A program made the translations under genes and the position numbers. 64,000 nucleotides of DNA from an uncultured delta proteobacterium (lineage in GTDB: Bacteria; Desulfobacterota; Binatia; Binatales; Binataceae): NCBI GenBank assembly GCA_963765675.1, contig CAVXXK010000001.1:2112001-2176000 (forward strand), read 5' to 3'. A model generated the notes under the pieces. The model was not told where the DNA came from, searched no databases, and worked only from the letters and a program-made list of their open reading frames with translations. Shown one piece after another: positions 4,263 through 8,213 of this stretch (its first letter is position 1; each line of letters starts with the position of its first letter).

Positions 4263-4781
4263 GTCATCCTGAGCGGAGGCCGTTGCGGCCGGAGTCGAAG
4301 GATCCCGGGACGACCGTGCGAAGTATCATGATCGCCTGCTCTGACCTTGGGACGCCGATCACCATCGCGCCGTTTTCATTCGCTGGCGAGATCGCGCCAG
4401 GCGGGATTGTCCTTTTCGATCAACGCAATCTTTTTCGCGCGCACCCATCCCTTGAGTTGTTTCTCTCTCGCGATCGCATCCGCGGCGCGATCGTATTGCT
4501 CGAAGTAAACCAGGCGCGTGACATTGTAACGTGCGGTGAAACCCGCGCTCGCTTTCTCCCGATGCTCTGCGATGCGCCGCTCAAGGTCGTTTGTCACGCC
4601 AACGTAGATCACGCGCGAGGGGCTCGCGACGATGTACACGGAAAAAGTGCGCATCGGCATGATCCTCGCGTGTCGCGCGGCGATCAGCAAGCGCCGGGGC
4701 CTTCAGGAGGAGTCACGATGCTGTGCATGGACGCCTCGGGATCCTTCGACTCCGGTCGCAACGGCCTCCGCTCAGGATGAC
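4263..4781. mobile_element. GIY-YIG nuclease gene bracketed by 45-bp inverted repeats (REPtron-like cassette)
   Basis: 4263-4307 GTCATCCTGAGCGGAGGCCGTTGCGGCCGGAGTCGAAGGATCCCG matches the reverse complement of 4737-4781 at 44 of 45 positions. Confidence 0.75.
4376..4660 (-). CDS. Small GIY-YIG family endonuclease
   Basis: SVYIVAS..RVIYVGVTNDLERRIAEH, FTARYNVTRLVYFE, AIAREKQLKGW.RAKKIALIE..NP.WRDL. Confidence 0.92.
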   Translation of the reverse strand: MPMRTFSVYIVASPSRVIYVGVTNDLERRIAEHREKASAGFTARYNVTRLVYFEQYDRAADAIAREKQLKGWVRAKKIALIEKDNPAWRDLASE

Positions 4782-5043
4782 GTACGGGCTGCCGTACCGT
4801 GGCAGCGCGATCCATCTTACGAAGATGTCTCCGATCCGCTACGATTCCCCCACGATGTCGCGCGAATCTGAAAATCTCGTCGCTCCCGAGGCTCCCGCCA
4901 CGACGCCGGAGCCGCCGTATCTCTACATCCGCGCGTGCGGCGCGCTGTGCGACGCGTTCTGGTGGGCGCGGCGCAGCACGCCCGCTCGCGATTCGTCGGA
5001 TCGCGAGCGCGACGAATCCCGTTCTCCCGATGCGCCCGAGCGT

Positions 5044-5790
5044 TCATAGCTGCCCGACCCGATAGCCGCGCCACAAATCCTCCGCGATACGAATCGGATC
5101 CGCGTGGATTCCGGCGCGCGTGAAATGTCCGCAGATATTTTCGAGATCGCGCCTGAGCAGCGACCGTGCATTCGGATTCATCCGCGCATCGACCGCTTGC
5201 GGAAAATCGATCGCCACCGCACGGCCCTCCGAGTAGAGCAGATTGTACGCCGAGAGATCGCCGTGCACGCGATGGTTCGCGAGCCACAGCGCGACGTTCT
5301 CGATGATCCCTCTAAGGCATCGTTGCGCGGCGGACGAATCCATCTCCGCCCGCACCAGCATCGGCGCGGCCGCGGTCTCGTCGCCAAAATATTCCATCAG
5401 GATCGCGCCCGGCGCTTTCGCGATCGGTTCGGGCACGTCGGCGCCCGCGCTATACAGTATTTCGAGCGTTTCATACTCCGCGCCGATCCAGGTGGCGTAT
5501 TGGACCGCGCGTCCGTGGCGCGACTTGTTCACGAACGCCCGGCGGTTGCGCGTTTCCCAATCCGCTCCGCGTCCGGCCTGGTAGACCGCGTCGTTGCGGA
5601 AGCCGCGCTTCTCGAGCGGTTGATAGACTTTGGCCGCAACCAGGTCGCGGCCCAAATCCGCTGAGGCGCGGCAGCAATAGACGGTGGCCTCCTTGCCGCT
5701 GCGCACGATGTACAAAACTTCAGTGATCAAGCCCTCGCCGAAAAACGCATCGAGTACGTTGTCGGCTTCGATTTGCTGATTCTCGGTCAT
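5044..5790 (-). CDS. RIO-family atypical Ser/Thr kinase/ATPase
   Basis: SGKEATVY, AAKVY, catalytic loop VHGDLSAYNLL, IDFPQAV; GGAG before ATG 5790. Confidence 0.92.
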   Translation of the reverse strand: MTENQQIEADNVLDAFFGEGLITEVLYIVRSGKEATVYCCRASADLGRDLVAAKVYQPLEKRGFRNDAVYQAGRGADWETRNRRAFVNKSRHGRAVQYATWIGAEYETLEILYSAGADVPEPIAKAPGAILMEYFGDETAAAPMLVRAEMDSSAAQRCLRGIIENVALWLANHRVHGDLSAYNLLYSEGRAVAIDFPQAVDARMNPNARSLLRRDLENICGHFTRAGIHADPIRIAEDLWRGYRVGQL

Positions 5791-5963
5791 TGGGTGCTCC
5801 ACGTTTTGGGGCCGTTGCGAGTTTCTTGAAACCCGGTCGCCATAAATTGAGTACGGTCATTGCGAATCCTCCTTCCTCTGATGTTGGTGCCGCCGCGTCG
5901 AAAATCGATCGTCGACAGGCGTGCGCGAACGCACACCCGCGCCGCGCGGCACTTTGCAGACGC

Positions 5964-5994
5964 AAAAAAAACCACGGGGCGCTCGCCTCCGTGG
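5964..5994 (-). terminator. Attenuator terminator in the RIO kinase leader
   Basis: Minus strand CCACGGAGGC-GAGC-GCCCCGTGG (9-bp stem, one bulge) immediately followed by T8. Confidence 0.8.
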
Positions 5995-6020
5995 CCGATA
6001 TGCAGTGGAGATTCCGGTAG

Positions 6021-6089
6021 TTACCGGACGGCGATCACGGAAGGCGCGACGCGGCGAATTTGCGCAAGTTCATTTCGTGTACTCTTCAT
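6021..6089 (-). CDS. Putative 22-aa leader peptide MKSTRNELAQIRRVAPSVIAVR
   Basis: AAGGAGGAG RBS upstream of ATG 6089, TAA at 6023-6021; lies between a promoter and a terminator and contains the antiterminator strand. Confidence 0.7.
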   Translation of the reverse strand: MKSTRNELAQIRRVAPSVIAVR

Positions 6090-6121
6090 CGCGATTTGCT
6101 CCTCCTTCCGGGATGCCTCCA

Positions 6122-6149
6122 ACTTTACCGCGGCGCACTATAGAGTCAA
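6122..6149 (-). promoter_or_regulatory. Sigma70-type promoter for the leader/RIO transcript
   Basis: TTGACT-N16-TAAAGT on the minus strand, just upstream of the leader RBS. Confidence 0.6.
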
Positions 6150-6256
6150 GCTGTCGATATCGGGTTAGTTTGAGATTTGTACTGTTAGCGATGCCTACTT
6201 ATCATTCGCACGCATGGCTGCCGCGCGCGAGCAAACCGGAATCCGCAGCGCCGCTG

Positions 6257-6442
6257 TATACCCTCTCCCTCCGGGAGAGGGTGCCGCGAAGCGGCGGGTG
6301 AGGGTGCTGCTCTGCTGCTTCTATGCAGGGCTATCTCTGTGCGCATATTACTCGGAGCAGCACCCTCACCCACGCGTCACGGCGATTGCAAAAAAGAGCA
6401 ATCGCCGCGCCGCGTCGCCCTCTCCGGGAGGGAGAGGGTATA
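6257..6442. repeat. Inverted pair of CCCTCTCCC/GGGAGAGGG-type palindromic repeats
   Basis: TATACCCTCTCCCTCCGGGAGAGGG...GGGTGAGGGTGCTGCTC mirrored by GAGCAGCACCCTCACCC...CCCTCTCCGGGAGGGAGAGGGTATA. Confidence 0.8.
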
Positions 6443-6479
6443 AAGCCATCTCCGCCCGCGCGATCACAATATTGCTTAT

Positions 6480-6550
6480 ACGGGCGCGTCGCGACGCGCC
6501 TCTACGAACCGGAATCTTCTCTTCGTAGGGGCGCGTCGCGCCGCGCCCGT
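6480..6550. repeat. GTAG-type REP doublet
   Basis: ACGGGCGCGTCGCGACGCGCCTCTACGAA / TTCGTAGGGGCGCGTCGCGCCGCGCCCGT; related copies at 52250 and 63189. Confidence 0.8.
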
Positions 6551-6730
6551 CTTTGTACGCCGACGATATGCGCCCATGTTTCGCTGCTGTCTCTTGCGCA
6601 TCGTGTGCTACTTTTCAGCGCGATTGGCGAAAAATCAGCACGTCGATTTTCGCGAGCCTCCTTGGCCTGGCAGGATCCTCGATCCGCCAAACCCCTTCTC
6701 GCACAGGCACTTCGGTTTACTTTGTTGCCG

Positions 6731-7148
6731 CGCCGCTTCCCTAACGATCGTTCGGGTTTTTGCCAGATTTGTTCATGGCTGAACTGTTCAGCCTTATGCA
6801 CAAATTCACTTCGTGCAAAACTGATCCCGTGGAAGCATCAGGCGCAAAAATCAGTCAGACCACCAAGACACGAAGACACAAAGAAATAACCCATTTCCGG
6901 CGCGCCGCGCGCAGAAAAGAATATTCTTCGTGTCTTAGTGTCTTCCTCTTCCTTGGTGTCTTCGTGTTTAGTTTTTTCTTCCGGCGCCGGAGGGTCCAAA
7001 AATCGATGACCAAAAAAGCTGCTGAAACGAACCCAATGTCGCGAATTCACCAGCATAATCAAGGAGTTTATTTTTTGAGCTACTAAAAAAGATACCAAAC
7101 GAACCCACCGAAATTTGCCCGATATCAAAAATCCAAGGCACCACCTTG
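6731..7148 (+). repeat. AT-rich dispersed element, copy 1 (inverted copy at 51466-51941)
   Basis: Long near-identical blocks shared with the reverse complement of 51466-51941, e.g. TTCGGGTTTTTGCCAGATTTGTTCATGGCTGAACTGTTCAGCCTTATGC and GATACCAAACGAACCCACCG. Confidence 0.9.
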
Positions 7149-7157
7149 TCTGCGATC

Positions 7158-8213
7158 TTACAAATTCGCGATCACCGCGCGCGCGAACTCCATCGTCTTC
7201 GCCTTCCCGCCCTGGTCGGGAGTCAGCACTTTGCCCTCGGCGTACACCTTGCGCACCGCCGCGTCGAAGCGATGCCCCGCGTCGTCGAAGCCCAGGTACT
7301 CGAGCATCAACGCCGCCGACATCATCGTCGCGCTCGGATTGATTATCCCCTGTCCTACGATATCCGGCGCGGTTCCGTGCACCGACTCGAAGTACGCGTA
7401 GTCCTCGCCGTAGCATCCGCTCGGCGCGAGTCCGAGCCCACCGATAATTCCGGCCGCCGCGTCCGACAGGATATCGCCGTAGAGATTAGGCATCACGACC
7501 ACGTCGAGATCGTGCGGCGACGCGACCAGCCTGCGCGCGAAGTCGTCGACGATGAACTGCTCGTACTTGATCTCCGGATACTTAGCTGCCGTCTCCTCGA
7601 CGATCTTGCGGAACAATCCGTCCGACTCGTGCAGCATGTTGTATTTCGAGGAGCAGGTGAGCTTGCCTTTTCCGCCCGCGCGCTTGCGCTTGAGCGTGAG
7701 CCGGCAGGCGAACTCGGCGACGCGCCGGGTGTTGCGCTCGGTGATGATCTTGATCGCGTAGATTCCGCGCTCCCCCGTATCGAGCGGAGCGCGCAGGATC
7801 CTGCTGTAGGGCGCGAGCGGCGCCAGGTTCGCGATCGGTCCTTCGAGTCCAAGGTACAGGTCTTCCAGGTTCTCGCGCACGATCACGAAATCGATTCCTT
7901 CGGGCCGCGCCATCGGACTGCGATAACCCTTCGACCATCGCGCCGGCCGCACGTTGGCAAACGTCTGTTTGCCCCAGCGCAAATAGGTGATCGAGGTCGT
8001 CTTGCCCGAGGTCGAGCCGAACAGCGTCGTGTCCGAGGCGTCAATCGCGGCGCGCGCCTTCGCGTCGGTCTCGCCGCGCACCCATTTTTCGCCCGGCGGA
8101 AATTCCAGGTAATCGATCGGCAGCTCGATCGCGCGCAGCACTTCCATCGTCGCCGCCATCGCCTCGGGCGCGGCGTCGTCGCCGGGCAGCACCACAACTT
8201 TCTTGTTTGGCAA
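7158..8213 (-). CDS. Isocitrate/isopropylmalate dehydrogenase family protein
   Basis: VVVLPGDDAAPE, VRENLEDLY, NLYGDILSD, FESVHGTAPDIVG, TPDQGG. Confidence 0.92.
   Translation of the reverse strand: MPNKKVVVLPGDDAAPEAMAATMEVLRAIELPIDYLEFPPGEKWVRGETDAKARAAIDASDTTLFGSTSGKTTSITYLRWGKQTFANVRPARWSKGYRSPMARPEGIDFVIVRENLEDLYLGLEGPIANLAPLAPYSRILRAPLDTGERGIYAIKIITERNTRRVAEFACRLTLKRKRAGGKGKLTCSSKYNMLHESDGLFRKIVEETAAKYPEIKYEQFIVDDFARRLVASPHDLDVVVMPNLYGDILSDAAAGIIGGLGLAPSGCYGEDYAYFESVHGTAPDIVGQGIINPSATMMSAALMLEYLGFDDAGHRFDAAVRKVYAEGKVLTPDQGGKAKTMEFARAVIANL

Follow-up and report, generated by a model that had tools for sequence, protein, structure and literature searches.

The RIO gene and its leader

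The stretch of DNA analysed here (the window, 64,000 nucleotides from an uncultured delta proteobacterium of the Binataceae; GenBank assembly GCA_963765675.1, contig CAVXXK010000001.1, positions 2,112,001 to 2,176,000) carries on its minus strand a gene for a RIO-type kinase/ATPase, and in front of this gene a leader with the makings of a ribosome-dependent transcription attenuator (Table 1). The leader consists of a sigma-70-type promoter, a Shine-Dalgarno (SD) sequence, a short upstream open reading frame (uORF1) and an intrinsic terminator, and its RNA has four regions that can pair as 1:2, 2:3 or 3:4. A second short open reading frame (ORF), uORF2, follows the terminator. An attenuator had been proposed at this site in an earlier sequence-only reading, and the promoter, ribosome-binding site, 22-codon ORF, hairpin over the stop codon and terminator with its T8 run were all found where that reading had placed them.

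Table 1. Leader elements and RIO gene, numbered from the first letter of the window
Feature	Position	Strand	Description	Basis
Promoter, sigma-70 type	6122..6149	-	TTGACT (6149-6144), 16-nt spacer, TAAAGT (6127-6122)	promoter scan
Region 1	6090..6112	-	SD AAGGAGG (6107-6101) and flank; putative 5' strand of the anti-antiterminator	minimum free energy (MFE) fold, RNAalifold
uORF1 (leader ORF)	6021..6089	-	ATG 6089 to TAA 6023-6021; 22 codons and stop; MKSTRNELAQIRRVAPSVIAVR	
Region 2	6036..6052	-	anti-SD and putative 5' strand of the antiterminator; leader codons 13-18; partner region 1 or 3	
Stop-codon hairpin	6013..6028	-	6 bp, leader stop codon inside the loop	RNAfold
Intrinsic terminator	5964..5994	-	region 3 (5' arm and loop) 5994-5981; region 4 5980-5972; T8 5971-5964	
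uORF2	5720..5877	-	SD GAGGAAGGAGGA; ATG 5860 to 5720, 46 codons, out of frame with RIO; spans the RIO SD and start	
RIO-type kinase/ATPase gene	5044..5802	-	likely start ATG 5790 (GGAG 6 nt 5'); frame open from GTG 5802	

The RIO family is tied to small-subunit maturation in archaea and eukaryotes, and Rio1 and Rio2 act on late pre-40S particles. The role of the bacterial RIO proteins ('RioB') is described as poorly characterised (PMC5815136). The protein encoded in the window matches Pfam RIO1 (PF01163) with 111 bits (E = 6.4e-32), and its closest solved structure is Rio1 of Archaeoglobus fulgidus (1zp9, E = 1.7e-18). The motifs GKEA, VHGDLSxYN and IDFPQA are retained; K37/E38, K58, H180-D182-N187 and D199, which we take to be the ATP-binding, catalytic and metal-binding residues, align to Rio1 and are invariant across 11 homologs. 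The top NCBIfam model is the PA4780 family RIO1-like kinase (NF041645, an equivalog model), reached with 170.1 bits and thus below the 350-bit cut-off, and by this score the protein would be a relative of that family and not an equivalog. A weak APH match (E = 1.6e-4) leaves room for an antibiotic-kinase role.

RIO genes are patchily distributed. A match was found in 15 of 61 related genomes, all 15 within the window's own family, and the closest public loci are labelled Candidatus Binataceae or 'uncultured delta proteobacterium'. In the window the gene is monocistronic: the next ORF of at least 100 amino acids on the same strand encodes a GIY-YIG protein and starts 353 nucleotides 3'. Gene content 3' of RIO varies even inside the genus. 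For example, in the same-genus genome G005 an ORF 3' of RIO (L003:2495-2941) has a BrnA antitoxin domain (E = 2.2e-15). The RIO proteins of several Chloroflexota loci (L054, L061, L082, L089 and L093) begin with an extra Lys- and Arg-rich stretch of about 50-70 residues, e.g., ...RRQQTRGYKKRKQGGNGR..., that is absent from the Binataceae proteins; RNA-binding tails are often rich in Lys and Arg.

In a scan of positions 4500-7500 the TTGACT/TAAAGT pair was the sole sigma-70-like site, against 1.0 expected by chance, and no promoter-like site was found between the terminator and RIO, where a separate promoter would have spoken against control by the leader. The terminator reads CCACGGAGGC-GAGC-GCCCCGTGG followed by T8, i.e., CCACGG-A-GGC GAGC GCC-CCGTGG, and folds with -15.6 kcal/mol. 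The hairpin at the stop codon is not private to the window, since the order CCGG-UAA-CCGG is retained in most aligned leaders of its family. With Rfam 15, the window leader had no covariance match at E <= 1, and 13 leader-bearing loci had none at E <= 0.1.

Region 2 can pair with either of two partners. Its pairing with the terminator arm, which the sequence-only reading had described as CGCC-U-UCCGUG (6046-6036) with CACGGAGGCG, is the MFE structure once the SD is masked and the 3' arm of the terminator is omitted; it has the 10 pairs and one bulge that had been claimed, and a duplex energy of -18.5 kcal/mol. Both alternatives, the terminator and the 2:3 pairing, were obtained by folding. What that reading had missed is that the antiterminator strand doubles as an anti-SD: by pairing with the SD of the leader itself it forms an anti-antiterminator. 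In the MFE fold of the window leader this helix 1:2 joins CGGAAGG and CGCGAUG to CGUCGCG-CCUUCCG, where CCUUCCG (leader codons 16-18) is the anti-SD, and its duplex energy is -15.4 kcal/mol.

The second short ORF, which lies over the RIO start codon, had also been missed. In the window's family, 19 of 20 loci have such an ORF across the RIO start, out of frame, 30-52 codons long and preceded by a strong SD, and a common beginning, M-x-V-[LI]-N-L-[WN], is found in three lineages. That uORF2 is a frameshifted N-terminus of RIO is unlikely, as the frame offset is +1 or +2 depending on the lineage. uORF2 probably modulates RIO translation, via occlusion or coupling. No hairpin that would sequester the RIO SD was seen in the region between terminator and gene, which is not notably structured (z = +1.21). 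A further ORF in the third frame (5787-5845, minus strand; ATG GCG ACC ... CAA TGA) starts 17 nucleotides past the uORF2 start, has no SD of its own, and ends in an ATGA that takes in the start codon of RIO, to which it could conceivably be coupled by termination-reinitiation.

Conservation and pairing of the leader

The leader is found at many RIO genes besides that of the window. In a first comparison, the 500 nucleotides 5' of 12 RIO genes (protein identity to the window's RIO 52-100%) all showed the same order of promoter, SD, short ORF, terminator, second short ORF and RIO. A covariance model, R1, was built from 20 leaders and used throughout; it is biased to the window's family, and detection outside that family is probably incomplete. 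In the 4.5-Mb genome of the window this site reaches 136.7 bits with R1, and the runner-up 26.1 bits. Over the 61 related genomes there were 13 strong matches (E <= 1e-12), each 119-204 nucleotides 5' of RIO and on the same strand, and the other two of the 15 RIO matches, being at contig ends, tell nothing on this point. Of the 13, L006 from the unpublished genome G010 is also among the 20 seeds and the 30 test sequences used below, and supports no claim alone. Genomes without RIO gave two weak matches alone, with E = 1e-3 (G013) and 8e-3 (G038). The match in G013 was rejected as a leader: neither an SD nor a short ORF accompanies it, and what remains is a plain terminator in front of an MFS gene.

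Outside these genomes, the best 80 public RIO loci were examined, and at E <= 0.001 R1 places a leader 5' of the gene, in the same orientation, in 26 of them. Of these, 16 are neither seeds nor duplicates of seeds, and the 16 come mostly from Chloroflexota (Anaerolineae, Promineifilaceae, Dehalococcoidia and others). Ktedonobacteria, including Dictyobacter (L042, L043), have a diverged version, and in Thermosporothrix hazakensis a short ORF and a terminator stand before RIO. The uORF, terminator and antiterminator pairing that had been read in one sequence recur, then, before RIO genes across the window's family and in a second phylum, with a complementarity that tracks each lineage. Promoters are part of the pattern as well. 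A strict TTG[ACT]NN-N16-18-TANNNT lies 15-37 nucleotides 5' of the SD in 17 of 29 leaders, and TTGAC-N17/18-GATA-type boxes were read from the same pattern output in 7 additional leaders (L012, L013 and L021-L025).

The geometry and the leader peptides were compared in 30 leaders. The leader ORF starts with ATG in all 30, 4-14 nucleotides after a GGAG, and has 17-30 codons (median 22). The distance from AUG to region 2 is 29-69 nucleotides (median 42.5). Region 2 ends 0-18 nucleotides before the stop codon in 28 of the 30 and reaches or follows it in the other two, and the terminator stem begins 22-43 nucleotides after the stop codon (22-29 in 22/30). With such spacing a ribosome at the stop codon would cover region 2 and not the terminator. 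This fits the masking logic of the sequence-only reading, which needs the antiterminator strand inside the footprint of a ribosome at the stop codon. If the ribosome is instead on the SD, at the start codon or only a few codons further, it would occlude region 1, and region 2 would stay available for pairing.

The peptides themselves have little in common. The anti-SD core is translated as X-Pro, mostly Ala-Pro, in 22/30, where GCGCCU of the anti-SD supplies the Ala-Pro codons; elsewhere these letters are in a different frame and give Val-Arg-Leu, or they fall past the stop codon, as in L047. Because the letters occur in varied frames, the RNA, and not the peptide, is taken as the selected feature. 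No run of codons for one amino acid occurs in the 30 peptides examined, as had been said of the window's, and nothing in them points to the sensing of an amino acid.

Helices 1:2 and 3:4 show covariation. RNAalifold of the 20 leaders predicts precisely helix 1:2 and the terminator. Across the 30 diverse leaders, 88.6% of cells in these two helices are paired (37-60% with slid partners), 9 of 17 pairs are changed on both sides (0-3 with slid partners), and none of 500 shuffles reaches the covariation score. Taken separately, the SD:anti-SD helix has 87.6% of cells paired and 3 of 7 pairs changed on both sides, and the terminator helix 89.3% and 6 of 10. The SD:anti-SD helix, the putative anti-antiterminator, appears as the best-conserved helix. 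In Ktedonobacteria it is written in other letters, with GGAGCGUG opposite CACGUCUCC (CACG(U/A)CUCC). Over the 30 leaders, the two strands of helix 1:2 fit each other better than they fit those of other leaders (-19.0 kcal/mol with own partners, -16.2 with swapped ones).

Helix 2:3 was followed by folding and by duplex energies. If the SD is masked and the 3' arm is left off, the terminator 5' arm is joined to region 2 in the MFE structure of 29 of 30 leaders. For a region 3 that takes in the terminator loop, the mean duplex energy is -16.9 kcal/mol, comparable to that of the terminators. Against dinucleotide shuffles the mean z is -1.71, with 27/30 leaders below zero and 15/30 at p < 0.05. With swapped partners the pairing weakens to -13.7 kcal/mol, and within this set of related leaders none of 10,000 permutations reached the observed mean. 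The loop letters, which are free of the terminator constraint, track region 2 and the SD flank, as in L089 (GUACACCUGU with ACGGGUGUAC), L054 (CGUACACCUG with CAGGUGUACG), L082 (GAGUGCGCCUG with CGGGUGCGCUC) and L010 (CGAGGUGC with GCACUUCG). In 12 fresh leaders from other genomes the result was replicated (mean z = -1.69, 12/12 below zero, arm paired with region 2 in 10/12). These comparisons support a predicted antiterminator that overlaps the terminator and would exclude it.

Several points weigh against reading the leader as an attenuator of RIO. A test of 2:3 with the 5' arm alone and an 18-nucleotide window gave no signal (mean z = -0.47, 4/30 at p < 0.05); since the folds show that the pairing runs into the terminator loop, the test was redone with the loop included, with the result given above. 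The leaders are related, so the permutation and shuffle counts overstate their independence, and the register of 2:3 differs among clades, so that no single set of covarying columns can be counted. The whole-leader fold of the window is unexceptional (z = -1.47; 17 of 200 shuffles are equally good), and the case beyond chance therefore rests on conservation. A consensus terminator scan did not list the leader terminator, presumably because its stem is interrupted by a bulged A. With R1, and with its bias to the window's family, no leader was found at E <= 0.001 in 54 of the best 80 RIO loci; leader control is not general to RIO genes. The second ORF appears to point to a further layer of control. 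Finally, termination and read-through at the leader are predictions from sequence.

Some variants of the leader were seen along the way. Tandem terminator-like hairpins, two or three in number and each with a U-run, occur in many Chloroflexota leaders (L054, L082, L089, L093, L051 and L061) and in Ktedonobacteria (L031, L034, L042 and L043), with stems of the type GCCAC(G/A)GG...CC(C/U)GUGGC. At L014 (G032:C5:1590686-1591186) the leader is intact, with 74.1 bits, and the RIO match spans residues 7-77 in an open frame of 164 residues; this may be a decaying or rearranged gene that still keeps its leader. The R1 runner-up in the window's own genome, L102 (G000:C1:63540-63637; 26.1 bits, E = 0.003), has an SD, a 22-codon ORF (MVLEHKELAPEFREAHLPPRCR), weak hairpins and a poor U-tract. 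It lies about 90 nucleotides 5' of a gene for a class I S-adenosylmethionine-dependent methyltransferase (Methyltransf_11, E = 1.4e-13) and may mark a further leader-controlled gene or be a chance match.

Genes behind the leader type

Outside the window's family the leader type serves genes other than RIO, a point that the sequence-only reading had missed. The R1 searches covered the genomes that contain five of the Chloroflexota RIO loci and then 151 genomes of that class. The five genomes contain extra copies of the leader, one of them before an ABC-F gene, truncated at the end of the locus, for which NCBIfam gives 'ribosomal protection-like ABC-F family protein' as the top model (E = 5e-88). 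The 151 genomes gave 16 R1 matches in 14 genomes. Behind these leaders were RIO (5 loci), RsgA, the small-subunit biogenesis GTPase (3 loci), an ABC exporter with a transmembrane domain (4 loci tested, with a fifth, near-identical leader, L121, outside the count) and an ABC ATPase (1 locus); at 2 loci the gene was lost at a contig end. Some of the loci served in this way have no RIO inside the 1.5-kb flanks.

Where the leader precedes RIO, the next gene on the same strand is in several loci of a similar kind. It encodes an MsbA-like ABC exporter in L054, L072, L089 and L093, RsgA in L061, and a TetA(P)/Tet(40)-like MFS protein in L052, L066, L081 and L092 (E = 1e-47 to 1e-108, matches that are below the curated cut-offs, and the L081 leader itself reaches only E = 0.059). 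Many other RIO loci have nothing recognisable, or unrelated genes, 3' of RIO, and the leader copy in the window would control RIO alone.

Both the shared regulation and the operons with RsgA, ABC-F and efflux genes make it plausible that RIO belongs to a translation-stress response, although such gene associations tell nothing of what the RIO protein does. An analogous set of genes is known from Streptomyces coelicolor, where an RsgA paralog is in the WblC regulon and the paralog mRNAs go up on tetracycline (PMC7157823). ABC-F and efflux-type functions are in that regulon too, in parallel with the gene set behind the leader type described here, and the main text of the same paper names neither RIO nor a kinase (PMC7157823).

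A probable ribosome-dependent attenuator and its alternatives

From what is shown here, namely which elements are present, how well they are conserved, how they are spaced and how the three helices keep their complementarity in each lineage, we consider it quite probable that the leader is a ribosome-dependent transcription attenuator before a monocistronic RIO gene, and that RIO would be expressed only while a ribosome is held up at the start or among the early codons of the leader ORF. Transcription would start from the promoter near 6149-6122, and the leader RNA would then choose among 1:2, 2:3 and 3:4. With no ribosome on the leader, 1:2 would form, the terminator would follow, and polymerase would stop at the T-run (5971-5964). 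A ribosome that translates to the stop codon would cover region 2, so that the terminator again forms and RIO stays off. If regions 2 and 3 are transcribed while a ribosome is still at the SD, the start or one of the earliest codons, region 1 would be occupied and region 2 free; 2:3 would then form, there would be no terminator, and polymerase would read into RIO. We infer both this direction of the switch and its signal, which would be slowed initiation or early elongation, i.e., translation stress, caused most plausibly by ribosome-targeting antibiotics.

Switches of this class are well known. In the vmlR leader of Bacillus subtilis the logic of anti-antiterminator, antiterminator and terminator has been shown experimentally (PMC9226507). 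In the account given there, vmlR and similar ABC-F leaders such as msrD have, like the window leader, a short uORF, an anti-antiterminator, an overlapping antiterminator and an intrinsic terminator, and a ribosome held at the uORF start blocks the anti-antiterminator and lets the antiterminator form, as it would in the window leader (PMC9226507). The feature typical of the vmlR/msrD class, an anti-antiterminator that can be disrupted by a ribosome on the uORF, is present here as the SD:anti-SD helix, whose 5' strand can be covered, and one copy of the window's leader type precedes an ABC-F gene. The two differ in construction. The vmlR SD is described as single-stranded, with a 3-codon ORF in the bulge of the anti-antiterminator (PMC9226507), whereas in the window leader the SD is itself a strand of the anti-antiterminator and the ORF, of 17-30 codons in this leader type, traverses the partner strand and stops just behind it, so that full translation would also enforce termination. 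There is no sequence similarity, the phyla are other ones, and the regulated genes include RIO and RsgA.

The attenuators of trp, his, leu and thr operons also have four regions with 1:2, 2:3 and 3:4 pairing, and a ribosome at the leader stop codon masks region 2 and favours termination. Unlike them, the leaders studied here have no regulatory codon run, region 1 is the SD and not coding sequence, and the genes are not biosynthetic. The likeness to whiB7/wblC lies in attenuation by an upstream ORF that senses translation stress (PMC7157823). There, one attenuator acts on a transcription factor and through it on a regulon, whereas here each gene or operon has its own leader copy. Ribosome-mediated attenuation of an ABC exporter is reported for the bmrB leader of bmrCD in Bacillus subtilis (PMC4191407); exporters also follow the window's leader type, directly or behind RIO, but organism and sequence differ. 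What is new is an uncatalogued leader family spread over two phyla, with the leader's own SD as an anti-antiterminator strand for its hallmark, and above all the gene set. The literature that was searched, supplementary tables excepted, held nothing that links bacterial RIO to a leader peptide, an attenuator or an antibiotic response, and a search of it for tet(P) attenuation gave nothing relevant; PA4780 is named there in a single paper.

The leader could be put to other uses than ribosome-dependent attenuation. Promoter, short ORF and terminator might constitute an independent small gene or small RNA, with a separate promoter for RIO and the terminator as an insulator. The terminator is strong, with its T8 run, and 170 nucleotides and a second ORF with a strong SD of its own separate it from RIO, and the SD:anti-SD helix could merely stabilise a small RNA; but the interval that such a promoter would have to occupy contains no promoter-like site, and the leader keeps within 119-204 nucleotides of RIO in 13 of 13 strong matches and was not found in relatives that lack RIO. 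A plain terminator would have no use for the lineage-by-lineage complementarity of region 2 to its arm and loop, and the same module stands before unrelated genes in other genomes, all of which makes an insulated small gene improbable. Somewhat better placed, though still unlikely, is a switch set by a trans-acting RNA-binding factor, either a free 30S subunit that docks at the SD or at the terminator's SD-like 5' arm, or RIO itself in autoregulation; the SD:anti-SD helix would then mimic the duplex of mRNA and 16S rRNA. For such a factor the ORF of 17-30 codons with a well-spaced ATG, present in 30/30 leaders, would be needless, and so would the stop codon that holds region 2 in the ribosome footprint. 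Regions 1 and 3 are indeed both SD-like in the window's family (GGAGG), but region 3 of the Chloroflexota leaders is GGGUGC-like and is not. Archaeal and eukaryotic RIO proteins are reported to bind small subunits (PMC5815136), and the terminator arm GCCACGG...CCGUGGC is unusually conserved over phyla; against such a factor, the leader also serves genes in loci without RIO inside the 1.5-kb flanks.

The direction of the switch might also be the reverse of the one proposed. In the model for the tet(M) leader, a fast ribosome coupled to polymerase suppresses the terminator, and on such a scheme efficient translation would turn RIO on and slow translation would turn it off. The fairly constant distance from the end of the leader ORF to the terminator, 22-29 nucleotides in 22/30, would be in keeping with coupling, but a ribosome at the stop codon is still 22-43 nucleotides short of the stem and cannot reach it, and by covering the antiterminator strand it would favour termination instead. 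The companion genes (ABC-F, efflux, RsgA) are moreover of the kind induced by translation inhibitors (PMC7157823), and we find reversed logic very improbable. Least credible is that the leader peptide is itself the product, as a substrate or partner of the kinase or as a precursor peptide, with a leaky terminator setting the ratio of peptide to enzyme. The X-Pro, mostly Ala-Pro, found in 22/30 peptides might be taken for a peptide motif, and N-termini are alike within clades; but the Ala-Pro codons are simply the anti-SD letters, which other leaders read as Val-Arg-Leu or put past the stop codon, peptides of different clades are otherwise unrelated, and RsgA, ABC-F and exporter genes stand behind leaders of the same type.

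The placement of RIO behind what would be a ribosome-sensing switch leads, under the attenuator reading, to a testable hypothesis, namely that RIO acts on ribosomes under translation stress. A bolder version, which we offer tentatively and which may well prove wrong, is that bacterial RIO is a stress-induced small-subunit factor in an unrecognised response to antibiotics that target the 30S subunit or block initiation, in which each gene (RsgA, ABC-F, TetA(P)-like pumps, ABC exporters) would be wired in by its own copy of the leader. If so, bacterial RIO would have stalled or damaged 30S subunits as its target, in the way that Rio1 and Rio2 work on late pre-40S particles, and it would represent a novel type of determinant for intrinsic resistance or ribosome quality control. 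Cultured Ktedonobacteria (Dictyobacter, Thermosporothrix hazakensis) carry the diverged leader, and this makes the idea testable at the bench.

The DNA just 5' of the leader promoter in the window has features of its own. Nested inverted repeats occupy positions 6253-6446, with arms of 44 nucleotides (6253-6296/6403-6446, 86% complementary), 17 nucleotides (6296-6312/6355-6371, 100%) and 18 nucleotides, and a separate palindrome of 29 nucleotides lies at 6480-6550. Weak Rfam matches to Ms_IGR-8 over these repeats (E = 0.003, under the gathering score) are probably hairpin artefacts. The set looks like a repeat of the repetitive extragenic palindromic (REP) or miniature inverted-repeat transposable element (MITE) type, and GC-rich palindromes (GGGCGCG..CGCGCCC) are also found upstream of the leader in L002 and L005.

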